From: a virus
Taxonomy: Duplodnaviria > Heunggongvirae > Uroviricota > Caudoviricetes
Virus record (IMG/VR): IMGVR_UViG_2778261537_000013
DNA length: 33,509 bases
Direction: 5' to 3' (one strand)
In this document: positions 5,355 to 30,063 of the stretch, one piece after another
How positions within the stretch are numbered: the stretch's first letter is position 1
Layout: each line of letters starts with the position of its first letter
The notes under the pieces: generated by a model
Told to the model about the DNA's origin: nothing
The model's database searches: none
The model's input: only the letters and a program-made list of their open reading frames with translations
Translations under genes and position numbers: made by a program

Positions 5355-8148
5355 TATCCGGGTCGCTTTCAGCGCCGTTGACAGGCTGACCCGGCCTGCC
5401 GAAAACGCCCGCCGCCTGATGGGGCAGTTTGGTGACTCCATCCAGCGAACGCAGGGGGCGATCAAAAATCTCGAGCGTCAGGCGCGTTCATTTGAGCGCG
5501 CCCGCGACGCTGTCAGTAAAGCGGATGCTGGCATATTGAAAGCACGACGCCAGCTTAACGCCCTTAATCAGTTACAACGCACGGGTACAGTGCTCAGCGA
5601 AAAACAACAAAAGCTGATGCAGCAGTTAAGCACCCGGCTTGAACGCCTGAATGAATCGCGCACACGGGAAATTCAGAAAATGCGGGAGCTTGGCGGAGAG
5701 CTGAAACGCCACGGCATTTCCCTGACAGGCAGCGATAACACCATCCAGCAGGCCATCAGACGCACCGAACAGTACAACAACCAGCTTGAACGCGAACGGC
5801 AGGCGCTTGCGCGTGTAACACGGGCGCGTGAGCGGTATTCGCGCGCGCAGGAAACAGCGGGAAAACTGAAAACAGGTGGTGCGCTGGCAATTGGTGCGGC
5901 AGCGGCGGGCGGCTATGCTGCCGGGCGTTTTTTGCAGCCTGCGATCGGGTTCGGCAAAGAGATGTCCCGCGTTCAGGCACTGACGCGAATCGACAAAAAC
6001 AGCCCGCAGTTTAAGGCGCTGCGTGAGCAGGCGTTAAAACTTGGCTCTGAAACACAGTTTACTGCGAGTGATGCCGCCAGTGGGCAGAGCTTTCTGGCAA
6101 TGGCTGGTTTTACTCCGCAGGCCATTCAGGCCGCATTGCCCGGTGTTCTTAATATGGCGCTGGCAGGTGGCGTCGAACTCGGCGAGACGGCTGATATAGG
6201 CTCCAATATCCTCACACAGTTCAACCTGACAGCCGATCAAATGGACCGGGTGGGCGATACGCTGACAGCAGCATTCACCCGGACCAATACTGATTTACGC
6301 GCGCTGGGCGAAACCATGAAGTATACCGGTCCGGTTGCCGCAAAACTTGGTATCAGTCTTGAAGAAGCGGCGGCCATGGCCGGGATGCTTGCCAATAATG
6401 GTCTTCGCGGAAGCGATGCTGGCACGGCCATGCGCGCAAGTCTGTCCCGCCTTGCATCACCGCCAAAAGCTGCGGCTGATGCGCTGAAAGAGCTGGGGGT
6501 GTCAGTTGCTGACGCCAGAGGCAAAATGCGCCCGATGGAGGATGTGCTGCTTGATCTCTATAAGGCGACACAAAAATACGGACAGGTGGACCAGGTTTCC
6601 TTCTTCAAGGACATCGCCGGAGAAGAGGCGTTTGTTGGTTTACAGACGCTTGTTGCAGCGGCTGGTTCAGGAGAGCTGCAAAAACTGACCAGAGAATTGC
6701 AGGGGGCAAGGGGAGAGGCCGATCGCGTTGCAAAAGTAATGGCCGATAATCTTGATGGTGACCTGAAAAATCTCGACAGCGCATGGGAAGGTCTTCGTAT
6801 TCGCATCAGTGATCTGGTTGACGGTCCGCTGCGTTCTGTCACGCAGTGGCTCACGCGGGTACTTGAAAAAATCACCTCGCTGGCGCAGGCCCATCCGGTA
6901 CTGACGCGCCAGCTACTGATAGCAGGCGGTGCGTTGCTGGCAATGACTGCAACGATTGGCTCGTTGTCACTGGTTATTGGGGTGCTTTACGGGAAGCTGG
7001 CCACCCTGCGTCTTGGTTTCGAAATTCTTACCCGGTCAATGAATGTTGTCAGAGTGTTGCCTGCGTTATGGGGAATGGTGACGGGGTCCGTTTCTTTACT
7101 GGGAGGCGCTATCGGGGCGTTGTTCAGTCCGGTCGGTCTTATCGTGGCTGCGCTTGCCGGAGCTGCCGTTCTCATCTGGAAATACTGGGATCCCATCAGG
7201 GCATTTTTTGCCGGGGTGTTCAGCGGGATTATGGAAAGGCTGACCCCGTTGCGCGAAACCTTTGAACGGTTTGGCCCTGTTTTTGACGCAATCGGAAGCG
7301 GGATCAGCCAGGTGTTTAACTGGTTTAAATCGCTGTTGTCACCGATGGAGTCCAGCAAGGAAACGCTGGATAAATGTACCAGTGCTGGCGAGATATTCGG
7401 TAACGTTCTTGGTGGCGCGCTACAGCTTGTTCTGACGCCTGCAAAAATGTTGCTGGATACGCTGGCGTGGATACTTGAAAAACTCGGTGTGCTTCCGGAT
7501 GAAGCGGAAAGGGCGAGAAAGAAAATCGAAGACGCACAGCGTGCGGCCATTCTTCAGGACAAGGTTGCTCTGTTTCAGGGAGACATTGCGAAAATCAATC
7601 CGCCGAAGTCTGCGGAAAATGGCAATGGCACCGGAGGCGATAAACCCAAAGACAACAAACCGCTCACAGACAGCAATACCGGCACGTTACGCAGACTCAG
7701 CAAAATTGCTGATAACACAGGTAAGCTGGTTGATGAGACGAAAAAACGCATTGGCCCCGGCGATATTGTCTTTAAGAACCTGCCCCGCGCACTTGCTGTT
7801 CGTGGGGAGTGGCAGGAGCGGAAGATTGCACAGGTCAGTAAGCCTGCCCCCGCAATTAATATCACCCCCGTGGTCCCGGCTCCGCTGCCTCCGGCGCTGG
7901 TCCCTGTTGTTGCGGCCAGCTCCCGCCCGGTGGCGGAGGCCATACGATCTCCAGTGGCATCAGTTCCTGTAACTTCCCGTAACCGGGAGCCTGTTGCCTC
8001 CGGATTTGGTGGTGAAATTCATGTTCATCTGCATAACGTTGTTACGCAGAATCCCCGCGAACTGGCGAAACTGGTCGGTGAAATGGTCAGGGCAGAATTG
8101 GAACGACGCGACCGTGCCGGACGTGGCAGTTTTTACGATAAAGATTGA
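5341..8148 (+). CDS. T: Tail tape measure protein gpT
   Basis: About 936 aa with an N-terminal coiled-coil region, a central alanine/glycine-rich segment and hydrophobic stretches, in the position after E/E'. Start chosen at ATG 5341 (MKTLDIR); in-frame alternatives at 5305 and 5332 cannot be excluded. Confidence 0.85.
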   Translation: MKTLDIRVAFSAVDRLTRPAENARRLMGQFGDSIQRTQGAIKNLERQARSFERARDAVSKADAGILKARRQLNALNQLQRTGTVLSEKQQKLMQQLSTRLERLNESRTREIQKMRELGGELKRHGISLTGSDNTIQQAIRRTEQYNNQLERERQALARVTRARERYSRAQETAGKLKTGGALAIGAAAAGGYAAGRFLQPAIGFGKEMSRVQALTRIDKNSPQFKALREQALKLGSETQFTASDAASGQSFLAMAGFTPQAIQAALPGVLNMALAGGVELGETADIGSNILTQFNLTADQMDRVGDTLTAAFTRTNTDLRALGETMKYTGPVAAKLGISLEEAAAMAGMLANNGLRGSDAGTAMRASLSRLASPPKAAADALKELGVSVADARGKMRPMEDVLLDLYKATQKYGQVDQVSFFKDIAGEEAFVGLQTLVAAAGSGELQKLTRELQGARGEADRVAKVMADNLDGDLKNLDSAWEGLRIRISDLVDGPLRSVTQWLTRVLEKITSLAQAHPVLTRQLLIAGGALLAMTATIGSLSLVIGVLYGKLATLRLGFEILTRSMNVVRVLPALWGMVTGSVSLLGGAIGALFSPVGLIVAALAGAAVLIWKYWDPIRAFFAGVFSGIMERLTPLRETFERFGPVFDAIGSGISQVFNWFKSLLSPMESSKETLDKCTSAGEIFGNVLGGALQLVLTPAKMLLDTLAWILEKLGVLPDEAERARKKIEDAQRAAILQDKVALFQGDIAKINPPKSAENGNGTGGDKPKDNKPLTDSNTGTLRRLSKIADNTGKLVDETKKRIGPGDIVFKNLPRALAVRGEWQERKIAQVSKPAPAINITPVVPAPLPPALVPVVAASSRPVAEAIRSPVASVPVTSRNREPVASGFGGEIHVHLHNVVTQNPRELAKLVGEMVRAELERRDRAGRGSFYDKD

Positions 8149-8154
8149 GGAGTC

Positions 8155-8649
8155 ATGGCCATGATGATGATCTACGGCATGTTTGTTTTTGAGTTGCGCA
8201 CGTTGCCGCATCAGCAGTTACAGCAAAACAAAAGCTGGCGACATGTGAAAAATGAACGCGTTAACCGTTCGGCAAGCTGGCAGTATATCGGTGCAGGTGA
8301 TGATCGCATCGTTCTTTCGGGTGTTCTTTATCCTGAGATTACAGGTGGCGAAGTGTCGCTGTCGTTGTTGACCACGCAGGCATATACAGGACGCCCCTGG
8401 CCTCTGATTGATGGCGTCGGGCAGATTTACGGCATGTATGTCCTGACCGGAACGAATACGACCCGCTCCGAGTTTGATCGCTACGGTAAGGCGAAAAAGA
8501 TAGAATTTTCACTGACTCTTGAACGCTGTGATGAGGATTTGCGGGAGCGCCTGCAATCCTCATCGTTCAGCGATATGTTGTCCGGCTTCAAAGATAAGGT
8601 GACATCATCCCTTAACAGCGCGGCCAGTTCAGTTAAGGGGCTGCTCTGA
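8155..8649 (+). CDS. U: Tail protein gpU
   Basis: 164 aa; MMMIYGMFVFELRTLP...SWRH...ITLSGVLYPEITGG...WPLIDG resembles the P2 gpU family; lies directly after T. Confidence 0.88.
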   Translation: MAMMMIYGMFVFELRTLPHQQLQQNKSWRHVKNERVNRSASWQYIGAGDDRIVLSGVLYPEITGGEVSLSLLTTQAYTGRPWPLIDGVGQIYGMYVLTGTNTTRSEFDRYGKAKKIEFSLTLERCDEDLRERLQSSSFSDMLSGFKDKVTSSLNSAASSVKGLL

Positions 8650-8659
8650 TTTAACGTAT

Positions 8660-8702
8660 GTCGCCAGTTTCCTGATGAAGGTGACTGGCGACTTGCTGTT
8701 GT
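8660..8702 (+). terminator. Candidate intrinsic terminator after U
   Basis: 9-bp inverted repeat gtcgccagt / actggcgac with a 15-nt loop, followed by a T-rich tract (ttgctgttgt). Confidence 0.45.
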
Positions 8703-9387: not shown

Positions 9388-9424
9388 AGCCATCGATACT
9401 TCTATCGATGGCTTTTTCTTTTTA
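9388..9424 (+). terminator. Strong intrinsic terminator between the acetyltransferase gene and the 3' end of G
   Basis: 11-bp perfect stem agccatcgata / tatcgatggct with a cttc loop, followed by TTTTTCTTTTT. Confidence 0.75.
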
Positions 9425-10000
9425 TTGTGGGGCGACTGGCCACTCAATATCTGCTGCTACTGTTGTATCAACACGATTCAACAATACTCGATATGTCTTC
9501 CATGCTGCCAGTAACGATGCCTCTTCCTCCGTCGCAATATCCAAATCTATAGCATCCTGAAGTGGTGCAATATGCTCACTGGCTACCTGCATCAGGCTGT
9601 TTTTTGTTTCTTCCGCCTCCCTTATCCGAAATAGTTTTTCTGCTTCTGCATCTTTCACCCAGGATGTGCCGTTCCACTTCTGATACTCTCCATACGGCGA
9701 CAACCAGGTAACATTTTCCGGTAACGGACCGAGTTCAGAAATAAATAACGAGTCCCCTGATGCCACGTCATAAACCGTTTTACCCCGATGGTCTTCCACG
9801 AGATGCCACGATGCCTCATCACTGTTGAAAACGGCCACGAAGCCAGCCGGAATATCTGGCGGGGCAATATCGGTACTGTTTGCAGGCAGACCTGTATGAG
9901 GTGGAATGTATGCATCACCTTCACCAATAAACTCATTGGTTCCGGTCAGTAGATTATAAATTTTTATGGTCCGTGATTGTTCACTCATTCTGAATGTCAT
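9422..10000 (-). CDS. G: Tail fiber assembly protein (gpG-like)
   Basis: 192 aa directly downstream of the tail fiber gene with an overlapping stop/start; size and position match P2 G. Confidence 0.8.
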
Positions 10001-25636: not shown

Positions 25637-25747
25637 TTACGGGATTCTGAAATCCCGTTTTTGTCTGTTTTGTGCGCGCTTCATATATCACTGCGCGTTT
25701 TTTGCTCATTTACGGGATTCGTGAGTCCCGTTTCTGTCTGTTTTTTG
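25637..25747. repeat. Two ~38-bp direct repeats, each with a GGGATT/AATCCC-type dyad, upstream of parM (candidate parC-like site)
   Basis: ttacgggattctgaaatcccgtttttgtctgttttgtg (25637..25674) and ttacgggattcgtgagtcccgtttctgtctgttttttg (25710..25747), roughly 33 of 38 identical. The second copy lies inside the 3' end of the A reading frame. Confidence 0.5.
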
Positions 25748-28503
25748 TTTCCGCTGGTCAGGCCACCCCGCAGCAGGTCTGCTTTGCGGCGGGCGCGTTC
25801 AGTGGTTTCACTGATTCTCTGTGCGTGCTCTGCGTCGCGGATGGCGCGCAGCATGTCAGAAAGCACGGTAACGGGTGTTTTCATGGTGTTCTGGTCCTGC
25901 TGAAGTGTGGATGCCAGGCGTGCGGCGGCTTCAGGGTCTGATGCCCCCAGCTGTGCTAGATAGTTGGCGACCGGGTTATGGCGGATCTCCGTGCTGCTTA
26001 CGCCGTGATTACGGCTCAGGCGCTGCCAGAGCTGCGTGATTTGGCTGTCCGGGCGGGTATCCGGTTTGCGTACAATTTCAAATCCCTGCGGTGCAATGAT
26101 GCTGCCGTCAACGTACAGACTGCCGCCCCGTAACAGGTGCTGCATCTGTTGTTCACCGATATGCAGGCCGAGAGATTCAGCAGACTCCCGCCATTCTTTA
26201 GCGAGTAACTCGTGGTTATCAGGCAAAGGTCGCGGCTGTTTGCGGCTCTGTGTCCAGTTCTGCATTTCATCACTGTTGTTTTTTGCCTGTTTGTCACGCA
26301 GCGAACGCATCAGCGCCCGGCGTTCGTGCCGTTTCAGTGAGTGCAGCCATTCGTTCACTTCAACACCGTCAGGGATCTGCGGCCACGGTGCTGGCCGTTC
26401 TTCCGGCTGTTCTGTCCCGTTGTTGTCCGTTTCCTGTACACGGGGACAGTTATTGCCACGAGTCCAAGGGGCGGCAGGGCCGCCCTGAAGGTCAAAACCA
26501 TTTTCGCGGGCGCTGTCTTCCGCTTCCGGTTTGCGTCTTACCAGCTTCCAGTTATCCGGATGCGTGCACACACGGGAGGATTCCCCGATGAGTGGTGACC
26601 AGATCCCGTAAATCTGTACACTCTGCTCGCCGTAATCGTTCAGTTCATCTGCGAGGTCGTAGGCGGTGCGAATCAGGTAGTCCTTGCGTGGAACAAGCAC
26701 GCCACCCTGTTTTTCAATGTAGGTGGCAAAACACCCGGCATCAGCGGCAGCGAGTACCGCATCCATTGCGTCATCCTTCAGGCGTTGCGGGCCTTCCGGG
26801 TTGCGTGCCATCTGGCTGGCAAGGCGACGCAGTTCACGCCACACCTGACGGGAGGGGATACCAAAGAACTGGAACTGGCGGACGCGGTGAAGGCGCGCCC
26901 AGCCGATGGCGCGTTCCACGCTCTCGGCCATTGATTTTCCGGTTTCGTGGTCAACGCGTGGTTTGCCCGTTTTCGGGTCGATGCCATCCACGGCGCGGCT
27001 GTCCAGGTTCTTTCCGATGTAGGTGGCGATGTAGCTGGTTGGCGTGCCTTTTGAGCCGTCTACGTACTCCGCCTTAAAACGAGGAGTTATGTCATCGCCC
27101 AGCTCGTGGCGGTCTTCCTGAATGGCAATATCGCAGACGTGGGACACGATGGTTTCAATCTCGTCCGGATGTGCAAAGACCATCATATGCCAGTGCACGG
27201 TGCCGTCATGGTGAGGCTCCACCGTGCGGATGCCATACCAGCGAAGACCGTCGCGGTTCAGTTTTTTGCGGACCGCCGCAAAAAACATGTTAACCAGGTA
27301 ATCGCTGGAGTCGCGCATGGTGGCCCCGTTCCATTTGGGGTTCGGATGACCGTTCTCCGTTGTTGCGTGGTATTTTGACGGGCAGGTGACAGTCAGAAAC
27401 ACCGCTCTGTCGCCACGGGCTTCGGCCAGAAGTTCCAGCCCCTTCATGGTGGCCATCATTTCTGCTTTACGGTGGACCGGGTTACTTACTCCCGCGTAAT
27501 ACACCGTCTCGAGATCAATCGTGAACCCGTCTTCATTTTCCAGCATGAAACTTTTCAGGAAATCGCGTGTTTTCTCACGCTGTGCGCGAAACTCGCTTAA
27601 CGCGTCCTGGCTCAGATAGGGCGATGTTTTTCTGGAAACCAGACAGGCGGCGCGGAGTTGTTCTTCTCTCCACTCGCAACGTAACAGCCACAGTTTGCGT
27701 TTCCACCATTCCGCACAGGTCAGGCGAAGGATTGCGCCCGGCAGCAGCTCCGTGTCCGGTTCGTTCCTCCGGTCTTTGTCTGTTGTCAGAGCGTCATAAT
27801 GTGGAGGCATAGCGTGCAGGTGTAACGCCATGCGGGCTAGCATCTGATACGCCTTCAGTGTTACATCCATGGTCAGCTCGCCATCAGTCGCGCCAAAGCC
27901 ATCGCAGAGCTTTTCGAAGGTGCTGCTGAACATCGCCGCCGTCATGGTGGCCAGCGTCTGTATCTGGTGTTTGTTGAGCTGCGGCAGGTAAAGCAAATCG
28001 TCCAGGCGTTCGCGTCCGGCAAGGGAGCGATAACCCGGTGTCAGCCAGCGTCCGTCAGTGCGATCCAGACGTTCGAATATTTTGCGCAGGGTTCCGCGTG
28101 CATAGCGTTCCGCCTGCCAGCTCTTTTTGCCTTTCCGGCGATCGGCTTCCTGTTTTTTGCGAAGGAAGGAGAGGTGGCGAATAAGCGGATCGCGCAGATA
28201 GGACGGCAGCAGGCGCAGCGAGGCCATGGCTTCATCCACCGCGCCGCGTGCCTGTTTTCTGGCGTCTCCTGCCAGTGTGATGGTTTTGTCCTGTTTTTCC
28301 TGTGCGTCCAGGCTTTTATTAATCAGGTTGCCCAGCGGCGTGGCGGAGAACGCCGCATCAGCCATTTCCTGGCGGCGCTCGTTCTCTGCCCGGTAGGCAT
28401 CCAGCCAGGAGGAAAGTGCGGATTCAGGAGCGGGGATCCCCGTTCCTTCACGCCCCACTGCGTGGCGCGGTTGTTGCCAGTCCCTGATGTACTCTGCCGT
28501 CAT
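25681..28503 (-). CDS. A: Replication initiation protein gpA (rolling-circle type endonuclease)
   Basis: 940-aa ORF in the P2 A position at the end of the early operon. Longer than P2 A (761 aa), so the C-terminal extension is uncertain. Confidence 0.85.
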   Translation of the reverse strand: MTAEYIRDWQQPRHAVGREGTGIPAPESALSSWLDAYRAENERRQEMADAAFSATPLGNLINKSLDAQEKQDKTITLAGDARKQARGAVDEAMASLRLLPSYLRDPLIRHLSFLRKKQEADRRKGKKSWQAERYARGTLRKIFERLDRTDGRWLTPGYRSLAGRERLDDLLYLPQLNKHQIQTLATMTAAMFSSTFEKLCDGFGATDGELTMDVTLKAYQMLARMALHLHAMPPHYDALTTDKDRRNEPDTELLPGAILRLTCAEWWKRKLWLLRCEWREEQLRAACLVSRKTSPYLSQDALSEFRAQREKTRDFLKSFMLENEDGFTIDLETVYYAGVSNPVHRKAEMMATMKGLELLAEARGDRAVFLTVTCPSKYHATTENGHPNPKWNGATMRDSSDYLVNMFFAAVRKKLNRDGLRWYGIRTVEPHHDGTVHWHMMVFAHPDEIETIVSHVCDIAIQEDRHELGDDITPRFKAEYVDGSKGTPTSYIATYIGKNLDSRAVDGIDPKTGKPRVDHETGKSMAESVERAIGWARLHRVRQFQFFGIPSRQVWRELRRLASQMARNPEGPQRLKDDAMDAVLAAADAGCFATYIEKQGGVLVPRKDYLIRTAYDLADELNDYGEQSVQIYGIWSPLIGESSRVCTHPDNWKLVRRKPEAEDSARENGFDLQGGPAAPWTRGNNCPRVQETDNNGTEQPEERPAPWPQIPDGVEVNEWLHSLKRHERRALMRSLRDKQAKNNSDEMQNWTQSRKQPRPLPDNHELLAKEWRESAESLGLHIGEQQMQHLLRGGSLYVDGSIIAPQGFEIVRKPDTRPDSQITQLWQRLSRNHGVSSTEIRHNPVANYLAQLGASDPEAAARLASTLQQDQNTMKTPVTVLSDMLRAIRDAEHAQRISETTERARRKADLLRGGLTSGNKKQTETGLTNPVNEQKTRSDI

Positions 28504-28509
28504 AATGAT

Positions 28510-28875
28510 TTACTTCGTCATGCCATTCAGGGTGTCGCGGCAGACTGTAGCCAGCCGCTGAATTTCCAGCACGGTGTCTTCTGTGTCGGCATGGCGATGT
28601 GTGATGCGGATGCTGTCGGCAATCACATCGACGATTGCAGAGGATGGGCGCTGGTAAATGCCAATAACGGACGGGGTGCCACCTTCAATGCGGTAAAGCC
28701 TGTAATTTCCCTCGTGGCTGTCAATCATGTAGCGACCATCAATAACAATCTTTCCGTCAGCGAGCTGCGGTACAGGCAGGGATTTCAGGTACATGTCATA
28801 ACGATCACGCACGCGAGCGGCAAGATCACGTTCTGTGTTGAGCAGGTATTCAAGAAAGTCGTTGGCGAGAATCAT
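28510..28875 (-). CDS. Hypothetical early protein (121 aa), translationally coupled to A
   Basis: Its stop lies 4 nt upstream of the A start codon; corresponds to the P2 orf80-83 region. Confidence 0.6.
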   Translation of the reverse strand: MILANDFLEYLLNTERDLAARVRDRYDMYLKSLPVPQLADGKIVIDGRYMIDSHEGNYRLYRIEGGTPSVIGIYQRPSSAIVDVIADSIRITHRHADTEDTVLEIQRLATVCRDTLNGMTK

Positions 28876-28947
28876 TGCGGCAATCCTCTTGTTACAGATG
28901 TGCGAAGGCCTCCCGCCGCAAGGTGCAGGAAAGGCCCGGAACAGGAA

Positions 28948-29178
28948 TTAATGGAGTTTGTTTTGCTGCTGGATGAGCTGTTGAAGCTCGTGCAGATCAT
29001 CCGCCAGATAGCTGAAAACAGCGGCAGAATAGATGTTTGATAGTGCGTGGCTGCGCTCATGCAGCATATTGATGTGCATGATTTGCGCGACGCGTGATGC
29101 GCGGAAAAGTCTGCGGTTGATTTCAGTCTGGATGTGACGACGCTCCGCGATAGCGCGGTGCTGTTTGCGGTTTGCCAT
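28948..29178 (-). CDS. Hypothetical early protein (76 aa)
   Basis: Small basic ORF in the early operon; no family recognised. Confidence 0.45.
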   Translation of the reverse strand: MANRKQHRAIAERRHIQTEINRRLFRASRVAQIMHINMLHERSHALSNIYSAAVFSYLADDLHELQQLIQQQNKLH

Positions 29179-29500
29179 GGTGTGGCCTCTGTAGTTGCAA
29201 GTTTTGAAAACTCACCATCCAGAGGTGGAAAACTCGGGGTGGTGAGACGTACAGGGTTTCCACAACCGGCAACTACAGAACCCGGCCCGACCGAAGTCGG
29301 CCCCGTACGCCCCACCATAATTCGTGTGCGAAAAAGACGTGGCGATACAGTACGCACAAAAAAACCGCTGGCGCGGTTGTGCGCTGTAGTTGTCAGCGGG
29401 GTGGAAATCCCGGCACCCGTTTTATGAGGTGCAGCGGAAATGTAACCTGACTGATTGCGGCATGGCAAGCGGTTTTTTTGTGTGTGCATGTTCTGGTTTC
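29179..29500. promoter_or_regulatory. Repeat-rich structured noncoding region inside the early operon (candidate regulatory, origin or small-RNA region)
   Basis: No convincing ORF. CTGTAGTTG occurs three times (29189 and 29384 direct, 29270 inverted), including an 11-bp perfect inverted repeat tctgtagttgc / gcaactacaga 70 bp apart; GGTGGAAA occurs twice; a GGCCGAC/GTCGGCC hairpin is present. Confidence 0.4.
29358..29378 (-). terminator. Candidate intrinsic terminator on the minus strand within the structured region
   Basis: On the minus strand a 6-bp stem aaccgc / gcggtt with a 4-nt loop is followed by a run of seven T. Confidence 0.5.
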
Positions 29501-29800
29501 TTACTGGTTCAGAAAAAAATCAAAAACCTTGTCAATGCGTTGCAGCAGCTCTTGCTGTATTGCTTCCGGCGTTTCCGGTTCGCCCGGCGCCTCCAACGTC
29601 GCGCAGAAATCAGCGATTTCATGATGGAGCGTCAGGCGAATGGCAGGAGCCGTGGTTCTGGCGTGCTCCAGCTCATTCAGCAGTGCCAGCACAGCAGACG
29701 GCGAGAGCATTGCGCGAAATGCCAGTAATTTTTGAGGCGTTGCCATTCGTTGCAGGGCAAATGCCAGTTCGCGTAGCTTCTGGTGGTTGATGGTGCTCAT
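29501..29800 (-). CDS. Hypothetical early protein (99 aa)
   Basis: Intact ORF with overlapping stop/start to the upstream gene. Confidence 0.5.
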   Translation of the reverse strand: MSTINHQKLRELAFALQRMATPQKLLAFRAMLSPSAVLALLNELEHARTTAPAIRLTLHHEIADFCATLEAPGEPETPEAIQQELLQRIDKVFDFFLNQ

Positions 29801-30063
29801 GCTCTGGCTTCCTTCAGTAGCTGGTTAAACATGTGAGTAAGTGGATTGCTACACCCGAACGGCATCGGGTTTACGTGGTAAGAAGCCTGGCCTCCTGTTT
29901 TGCGAGCGCGACCACCTGTGCTGCGGTTTGTTCTGATGACTAAGCCGCCGCGCCAAAGTCGGCGTAACTCAGCATTAATGGCTGTGGTTGGGGTATTCAG
30001 TGCTGCGGCGATCTCTCCGCCGCTACACCCCGGATGAGTAGCGATGTAGTCCAGAATGGTCAT
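29797..30063 (-). CDS. Putative winged-helix DNA-binding protein (88 aa)
   Basis: N-terminal TILDYIATHPGCSGGEIAAALNTPTTAINAELRRL resembles a helix-turn-helix/winged-helix recognition unit. Confidence 0.45.
   Translation of the reverse strand: MTILDYIATHPGCSGGEIAAALNTPTTAINAELRRLWRGGLVIRTNRSTGGRARKTGGQASYHVNPMPFGCSNPLTHMFNQLLKEARA

Follow-up and report, generated by a model that had tools for sequence, protein, structure and literature searches.

The window analysed here, a DNA stretch of 33,509 nucleotides taken as a whole, derives from a temperate phage of the P2 type that belongs to the P88 group (Xuanwuvirus, Peduoviridae), and we investigated a repeat-rich region of its early operon, at positions 29179-29500, as a putative regulatory cassette composed of an IsrK-like and a C4-like antisense RNA. 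The early operon is encoded on the minus strand, on which all features described below lie unless stated otherwise, and it comprises, in order, a cox-like gene; several small open reading frames (ORFs); a gene for a MarR-like, winged-helix protein of 88 amino acids (aa; 30063..29797); orf99 (29800..29501); a gap of 322 bp; an ORF of 76 aa that falls into the P4 epsilon ('derepression', anti-repressor) family (28948..29178); orf121 (28875..28510), which lies downstream of this epsilon-like gene; and the replication gene A, encoding gpA, a replication endonuclease of 940 aa (28503..25681). The region is 99.8-100% identical to its counterpart in phage P88, and other P88-like phages show ∼94% identity across the 951-bp segment (28900-29850) that spans it.

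An Rfam scan covering the whole window placed two small RNAs, one directly downstream of the other, in the gap between orf99 and the epsilon-like gene. The first, at 29432..29358, matched the isrK family (RF01394) over model positions 1-77 with 63.6 bits (gathering score, 50), and the second, at 29322..29235, matched the C4 antisense RNA family (RF01695) over the full-length model (positions 1-87) with 80.5 bits (gathering score, 45). The C4 segment has the architecture of its family, i.e., a 17-bp closing stem around two hairpins, of which the second has a loop of ∼12 nt, and its minimum-free-energy fold is identical to the Rfam consensus; hairpin 1 is the GC-rich hairpin that had been noticed in a preliminary description of the region. 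At the ends of C4, an acceptor-stem-like helix and a 3' CCACC tail are visible, and an AUG is located at its 5' end (29318..29316). The IsrK segment, a putative equivalent of P4 seqA, has a fold z-score of -3.5 and folds into the hairpins of its family and an intrinsic terminator, which our terminator scan placed at 29378..29363 (AACCGC-GCCA-GCGGTT), followed by a run of seven U ending at 29358. Further, a consensus scan identified a promoter-like site (TTGCCA, an 18-nt spacer, and TACATT; 29439..29468) that ends 7 nt before the IsrK 5' end, with a predicted transcription start at ∼29432. A -35/-10 pair stands at the matching position (∼7 nt before the isrK 5' end) in 12 of 12 homologous loci as well as in P4, where this is the position of P_LE, and the position of the terminator is likewise kept in the 12 loci. 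The preliminary description had noted the minus-strand hairpin with its T-run and had suggested a small RNA that ends there, near 29358; both stand, the latter as a predicted isrK-family RNA preceded by a promoter-like site. Between the IsrK terminator and C4 lies a spacer or leader (29323..29357), which would be present in read-through transcripts only.

The repeats of the region coincide with defined positions in, and immediately downstream of, these two RNAs. The 9-mer CTGTAGTTG occurs in three copies (at 29189-97 and 29384-92 on the plus strand and at 29270-78 on the minus strand) and nowhere else in the 33.5 kb; shuffled sequences predict 0.17 copies, and three copies were reached in none of 100 shuffles. 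We also recovered the 11-bp perfect inverted pair TCTGTAGTTGC/GCAACTACAGA, with its members 70 bp apart, and the duplication of GGTGGAAA (at 29224 and 29400), the complement of which is found at 29257-63. Because this 7-mer alone is not enriched across the window (9 copies observed vs 4.9 expected), the significance of GGTGGAAA lies in its position and its covariation. At the RNA level, (i) the inverted copy of the 9-mer constitutes b', the loop of C4 hairpin 2 (CUGUAGUUG, 29278..29270), and is accompanied by the segment a' (GUGGAAA, 29263..29257), which is single-stranded in C4; (ii) within IsrK, box a1 (UUUCCAC, 29407..29401) occupies the loop of hairpin 2, and box b1 (CAACUACAG, 29392..29384) is located 3' of a1; and (iii) past the C4 3' end, box a2 (UUUCCAC, 29225..29231), which is complementary to a', lies at a distance of 3 nt, and box b2 (CAACUACAG, 29197..29189), at a distance of 38 nt, runs into the Shine-Dalgarno sequence GAGG (29189..29186) that is situated 7 nt upstream of the ATG of the epsilon-like gene. 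The b' and a' elements of C4 are complementary both to b1 and a1 inside IsrK and to b2 and a2 downstream, with 7 bp for the a'-a2 pairing and 9-11 bp for the b'-b2 pairing (11 bp when extended). A GAGG or GGAG Shine-Dalgarno sequence directly follows b2 in most of the homologous loci examined, the N15 and Yersinia loci being different in this respect. As far as its sequence can tell, this layout of a1/b1, a'/b', and a2/b2 is the architecture of the P1/P7 c4 system, and the element agrees with the IsrK-C4 family in every membership feature that a sequence can address; it joins this known family and is not a new kind of element.

When the read-through RNA (273 nt) is folded, its minimum-free-energy structure already has the b' region paired with b2 in cis, in agreement with the 'inactive structure A' reported for Gifsy-1. 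Another sequence, GGAUGGUGAG, located between a2 and b2 (29206-29224), is conserved here and in homologues and is similar to the 5' strand of the stem that closes C4. It could pair with the 3' strand of this stem, CUCACCACC, and the unprocessed transcript would then adopt a different fold, in a manner comparable to structures A and B of Gifsy-1.

The conservation of both RNAs was examined in 12 homologous loci (three from P88-like phages, seven from Stx or lambdoid phages, one from N15, and one from a Yersinia phage), all of which contain isrK followed by C4. Among 11 distinct homologues, 100% of the 297 cells were paired for C4, and 12 of its 27 pairs had changed on both sides; for IsrK, 89% of the cells were paired, with compensatory changes at 8 of 18 pairs. 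None of 500 shuffles matched these values for either RNA, nor did any slid structure approach them. The box sequences vary among the 12 loci, and their position and complementarity are kept in every locus at three of the four sites. The exceptions concern the b site downstream: in cdtI, pairing at the canonical position is only weak, and the Yersinia phage has both of its downstream boxes displaced. Moreover, a comparison of the window with phage PV468777 over 629 nt (29500-28872) revealed 44 differences, ∼38 of which are inside the ∼320-nt gap, where they cluster in the six boxes and at compensated stem positions; the 76-aa gene has 4-5 differences.

We extended this comparison with a DNA-pattern scan of viral contigs, which yielded 119 P2-like modules, 78 of them distinct and with a recognisable C4. 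These 78 modules carry 27 (b', a') combinations, and in 69 of them, each of the four sites has a run of 7 or more contiguous Watson-Crick pairs with its cognate C4; in the remaining modules, G-U pairs occur or one or two sites deviate. Since a DNA-binding array does not predict such a three-way co-variation of boxes, the co-variation argues for RNA-RNA recognition, and on this sequence evidence the repeats are RNA pairing boxes rather than sites of a protein-binding array. Judging from the combinations found, the a and b boxes appear to reassort independently. Duplex energies were better by ∼10 kcal/mol for own than for foreign partners, a measure that is blurred by conserved stem sequence.

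Several further observations were made on these modules. The b' loops fall into ∼17 types and the a' segments into ∼7 types among the 78 P2-like modules (L136-L250 and others), and in the L022-type module, the a1 box no longer matches its own a'. One viral contig, L030, contains two C4 modules (221-308 and 7845-7932), of which one is P2-like and precedes an epsilon-like gene and gpA, and the other precedes a gene with a product starting MATT; the a' segments of the two are mutually complementary (UUUCCAC and GUGGAAA). Additional Rfam matches were found near two of the homologous modules, namely sRNA-Xcc1 in phage phi191 (L127, 2523-2606), where it is flanked by the genes for Rha and the anti-repressor, and ryfA in the Yersinia phage (L131, 149-447).

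The first gene downstream of b2, the 76-aa ORF, matched the Pfam family PF25738 'Derepression' with 31.8 bits (cut-off, 27), and its product is 29% identical to P4 epsilon in BLASTP (E=2e-8), which itself scores 170 bits against this family. Diversity by codon position in the ORF (0.126/0.135/0.200) shows the third-position excess expected of a real gene. P4 epsilon is established as an anti-repressor that inactivates the P2 C repressor (PMC8628076). The order of C4, epsilon-like gene, and gpA is retained in the distant P2-like contig L030, the gpA of which is 30% identical, and a profile scan of genome contigs with an alignment of epsilon-like proteins recovered three close relatives. A comparison of orf121 with P4 ORF151 gave no significant similarity (E=0.16), and a LexA-box scan of the window returned one GC-rich hit inside gpA, consistent with chance, and no link to the SOS response. 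When P88-like contigs (L022, L036, and L060) are compared with the window (28948-29178), the epsilon-like protein is only 67-83% identical, and their orf121 and gpA are mostly 96-100% identical (the gpA of L060 is ∼90% identical to that of the window), so that the epsilon-like gene and the RNA boxes form a local hot-spot of divergence.

Just upstream of the promoter-like site, we found a candidate anti-terminator, the upstream arm (ACACACAAAAAAACCGCUUGC, 29465..29485), the 3' end of which overlaps the -35 hexamer. Its 21 nt are 90% complementary to 29372..29352, that is, to the terminator 3' half, the U-tract, and six further bases (inverted repeat I2). The arm is present in 77 of the 78 distinct P2-like modules, and in two variant lineages, L030 among them, changes in one arm are compensated in the other. 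Most of the further loci tested (lambdoid, N15, and others) had no significant arm (p<=0.05); weak partial matches (p<=0.05) at one shared position occurred in ST64B and mEp460, and no arm was seen by eye in P4. When nascent transcripts with a 5' end at 29500 or 29560 were folded, the terminator hairpin was never part of the minimum-free-energy structure, which contained a long-range helix instead, whereas the terminator formed fully with a 5' end at 29432. This modelled helix suggests that termination depends on the promoter used: transcripts from the early promoter would carry the arm and read through the terminator into C4, the epsilon-like gene, and gpA, and those from the IsrK promoter, which lack the arm, would stop. 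Early-promoter transcripts must reach gpA and have no N-type antitermination available to them, a setting in which the arm would serve as an anti-terminator of the phage's own. Other roles may be envisaged for the arm, in that its A-tract may act as an UP-element or the ∼20-bp helix as an RNase III site.

Taken together, we read the minus strand of 29179-29500 as a P4/P1-type antisense-RNA regulatory ('immunity') cassette within the early operon of a P88-like, P2-type prophage, and we put the probability of this sequence-based reading at roughly 0.85. The mode of action that we propose starts from features observed at the locus itself (the family membership, the RNA structures, the complementary and covarying boxes, the placement of b2 at a ribosome-binding site, and the identity of the downstream gene) and is modelled in its further steps on the relatives of the cassette. 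The putative promoter (29468-29439) would give rise to transcripts from ∼29432, most of which would stop at the modest intrinsic terminator (29378-29358) and yield an IsrK/seqA-like RNA of ∼75 nt with boxes a1 and b1. Read-through transcripts would carry the C4/CI RNA (29322-29235), which would presumably be released by processing; C4-type RNA, a stable species of ∼77 nt, is excised from a longer transcript and matured by RNase P, which acts at its 5' end, in P1, P7, and P4. The C4 loop b' and segment a' would then pair with b2 and a2 directly downstream, and as b2 runs into the Shine-Dalgarno sequence of the epsilon-like gene, C4 would block its translation. The untranslated RNA would be exposed to premature (Rho-dependent) termination, leaving orf121 and gene A silent, by analogy with icd-ant in P1 and kil/eta-alpha in P4. 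IsrK, which offers the same boxes as the target, could titrate C4 as a decoy and would in this way be an activator. In Gifsy-1, IsrK provided in trans activates translation downstream of the C4-like region by >100-fold (PMC4825925, Table 1); Hfq binding and trans activation of the read-through mRNA by IsrK have been shown for Gifsy-1 only (PMC4825925). The cassette would thereby place an anti-repressor and replication under a second, RNA-based layer of control, comparable to P1 immI, in addition to a first layer represented by the C/Cox switch.

Several points weigh against this reading. The candidate promoter matches the consensus at only 9 of 12 positions, and the terminator stem is short (6 bp). 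The polarity on gpA is an analogy and not an observation, and the sequence is compatible both with repression by C4 (the P1/P4 model) and with a cis structure that is mainly relieved by IsrK (the Gifsy-1 model). For the arm, the proposed anti-terminator role is drawn from equilibrium folding together with a small number of compensatory variants, and co-transcriptional kinetics could favour the local terminator hairpin. Finally, a long frame that includes the C4 AUG, ORF205, is open in 73 of the 78 modules and is tightly packed between orf99 and orf121, and translation of the region may be part of, or compete with, the RNA mechanism.

ORF205, or the 'Ash' frame (28872..29489), starts 12 nt past the orf99 stop; extends across the arm, IsrK, and C4 and, in the +1 frame, across the epsilon-like gene; and ends in a TGA that overlaps the ATG of orf121 (ATGA). 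This 205-aa minus-strand frame is a caveat to the earlier statement that the region holds no credible ORF, but the constraint on its sequence is of the RNA type and not of the protein type. We take it to be either spurious or a read-through frame that is translated without being conserved. One explanation, which we consider rather unlikely, is that the frame is translated and the peptide itself is irrelevant. Ribosomes starting at the AUG at 29489 (on early transcripts) or at the C4 AUG at 29318 would cross IsrK, C4, and epsilon and end at the orf121 ATG, and such translation would suppress both the terminator and Rho and couple to orf121-gpA, with the result that the lytic transcript bypasses C4 control. 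The openness of the frame and its ATGA overlap with orf121 fit this idea, as does an in-frame ATG at -171/-174 that is found in most modules, even in those with a different upstream flank, such as P88 with an SPFH gene. Moreover, the Ash frame of lambdoid phages and P4 continues in-frame into the downstream gene, and in Gifsy-1, the equivalent AUG opens orf45, a translated ORF on which coupling to anrP depends (PMC4825925). However, no convincing Shine-Dalgarno sequence precedes the AUG at either 29489 or 29318, and the statistical support for frame maintenance is modest, and the modules share ancestry. Read-through translation and the antisense cassette are, in any case, not mutually exclusive.

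It is also conceivable, at distinctly longer odds, that the cassette acts mainly in trans rather than on its own epsilon and gpA genes. It would then defend against, or engage in cross-talk with, other elements whose boxes match its own, namely P4-like satellites or heteroimmune P2-like phages. The same cassette is the immunity system of the P4 satellite; its boxes form 27 combinatorial alleles, with an epsilon-like gene that diverges faster than its flanks; and a defence role against satellites has been proposed for the lambdoid copies (PMC3632133). Against a predominantly trans role, perfect cis targets are situated before the module's own epsilon-like gene in every module.

Very improbable, in our estimate, is that the region represents an ordinary protein-coding gene, with ORF205 encoding an 'Ash family' protein or a transcriptional regulator, or the decayed remnant of such a gene. 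ORF205 matched Pfam Phage_ASH (PF10554) marginally, with 27.4 bits against a cut-off of 26, over residues 16-107 (29444..29169), and it also matched PHROG 'transcriptional regulator' families. It carries a coding sequence (CDS) annotation in P88_4B11, PGAP labels it a pseudo 'ash family protein', its stop overlaps the orf121 ATG, and the other two frames are open in 10 and 6 modules vs the 73 for ORF205, a count to be read with the shared ancestry of the modules in mind. The Ash frame is open in most lambdoid loci as well, where ancestry is again shared and the chance expectation is not negligible. However, codon periodicity was missing from the module (0.155/0.164/0.149) and also from C4 when 11 diverse homologues were compared (0.301/0.310/0.299), whereas the overlapping epsilon frame does have a third-position excess; two homologues (L131 and L132) contain in-frame stops; and variation is concentrated in boxes that keep their complementarity and in compensated stem pairs. 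Over the epsilon gene, the +1 frame is open in ∼7-8% of codon shuffles, a figure that is not decisive. The Phage_ASH model also matches an obsolete P4 'cI protein' ORF that lies over the CI RNA. Homologues with an ordinary coding gene at this position had been named in the preliminary description as a finding that would refute its own reading; relatives do annotate an ORF here, a superficial agreement that extends neither to codon periodicity nor to homologues in which the frame is interrupted by stops. The evidence against a protein function of ORF205 is stronger than the evidence for it, and we conclude from these sequence comparisons that the 'Ash' similarity is a shadow of the conserved RNA.

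This conclusion touches on the Ash family itself. PF10554 matched the window at 29169-29444, P4 at 8168-8584 (L251), mEp460 at 1141-2292 (L128), and N15 at 1600-1890 (L130); the match in mEp460 falls on the RNA part of the 'Rha' CDS, and that in N15 on gene 32. The true P4 epsilon family is PF25738 and not PF10554, which has been used as an 'epsilon (Ash)' marker for the detection of P4-like satellites (PMC8628076). From the positions of these matches, Phage_ASH may model the translation of an RNA locus (isrK/seqA-C4/CI-a2b2) rather than a protein. In four lambdoid loci (L125, L126, L128, and L129), the isrK-C4 module belongs to the early right operon, with cro on one side and the replication genes on the other, and a long annotated 'Rha/regulator' CDS swallows the module, with a frame that runs in-frame into the Rha gene.

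Lastly, the preliminary description had suggested a protein-binding array, an extra origin, or a partition-related site. Such a DNA-level array (operators of the adjacent MarR-like protein, gpA iterons or a second origin, or a partition site) has in its favour the repeated and inverted motifs in an intergenic gap beside a winged-helix gene and gpA, and we dismiss it as next to excluded. The 9-mer amounts to only three copies, one of which is inverted inside an RNA loop. All three, one of them antisense in a C4 loop and two of them sense at fixed positions of the flanking RNA, co-vary across dozens of alleles as RNA-RNA pairing predicts. They change together in such a way that complementarity is kept and identity is not, each at its set place in the conserved RNA structures, and they do so next to the unrelated replication proteins and neighbours of lambdoid phages, N15, and P4. 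The P2-type origin is located within gene A, which likewise counts against a second origin in the gap.

Close relatives of the antisense cassette (at least 80% of the module length matched) are present in 1,162 of 5,426 complete E. coli genomes. The RefSeq annotation of the module (29170-29500; L252 and L253) is either blank or an incomplete 'ash family protein' pseudogene and never a noncoding RNA. Three papers on P88 and on the diversity of P2-like phages (PMC5285337, PMC13100340, and PMC3448106) contain no mention of antisense RNA, and the first two contain no mention of derepression; P88 was recovered following mitomycin-C treatment (PMC5285337). Recognition of the module as an IsrK-C4 switch would provide a candidate regulator of the epsilon-like anti-repressor and gene A in a large group of P2-like prophages. 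The points specific to this context are an epsilon-like target in a helper-type phage, combinatorial specificity alleles, and a candidate anti-terminator arm, which would make termination promoter-dependent. The 27 box combinations would constitute natural orthogonal antisense specificities and offer a handle on heteroimmunity among near-identical prophages. As a speculation that we rate as rather doubtful in its entirety, P88-type phages, which are of the P4-helper type, share with the satellites both the cassette and epsilon, in the form of dozens of a/b alleles that recombine freely and serve as a second, RNA-based immunity or commitment switch on gene A and as a weapon or shield between helper and satellite or phage and phage, with an RNA anti-terminator built in. 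In another part of the window, a minus-strand ORF of 192 aa (9422-10000) contains a match to Rfam IS009 at 9459-9657, which scores 186 bits (gathering score, 117).

Known carriers of the IsrK-C4 system are P1, P7, P4, N15, and lambdoid prophages (PMC3632133, PMC4825925); IsrK and C4 have been equated with P4 seqA and CI (PMC3632133). The N15 anti-immunity locus (CA RNA and antA/B/C) resembles the cassette described here in having isrK and C4, with a terminator between them, upstream of anti-repressor genes. It differs in that N15 is a linear plasmid-prophage, in that the locus is a separate operon, and in that no significant upstream arm was found there. The isrK-orf45(STnc1160)-anrP locus of Gifsy-1 from Salmonella (PMC4825925) has in common with it an isrK promoter, a leaky terminator, a translationally silent read-through mRNA, a short IsrK that pairs in trans with a C4-like region, a downstream anti-repressor, and an AUG at the 5' end of the C4-like region. 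In contrast to the present locus, Gifsy-1 is a lambdoid phage and its downstream effector is AntQ; further, orf45 is short and followed by anrP, whereas the equivalent frame here runs for 148 codons to the orf121 start and is out of the epsilon-like frame.

The immI region of P1 and P7 (c4, icd, ant) has an RNA of the same C4 family, the a' and b' of which pair with a2 and b2, where the first downstream ORF has its ribosome-binding site; an anti-repressor is controlled there, as is proposed for the present cassette, and specificity changes via the boxes. The heteroimmunity of P1 vs P7 is reportedly due to such box-determined specificity (Citron & Schuster 1990, cited in PMC3632133). Unlike in P1/P7, the region investigated here has an intrinsic terminator between a1/b1 and C4, which would make IsrK a separate RNA; its anti-repressor is of the epsilon rather than the Ant family; and a replication gene lies downstream.

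In P4, Rfam places isrK at 8692..8615 and C4 at 8507..8420, upstream of epsilon, ORF151, ORF106, and alpha. The P4 cassette stands at the start of a satellite operon, whereas that of the window lies within an early operon, and the phage is a P2-like one of the helper type; kil/eta intervene in P4, whereas the epsilon-like gene here is the first after b2, 57 nt past C4; the replication gene encodes the alpha primase in P4 and the rolling-circle endonuclease gpA here; and the upstream arm complementary to the terminator, present in the window, was not seen by eye in P4. With these differences, the two loci share the same order and orientation of promoter, IsrK/seqA, C4/CI, a2b2/seqC, epsilon-like gene, small ORF, and replication gene, with boxes on both sides of the antisense RNA and a promoter position that matches P_LE, and in this way the cassette would connect the regulatory logic of a helper-type phage with that of the P4 satellites.

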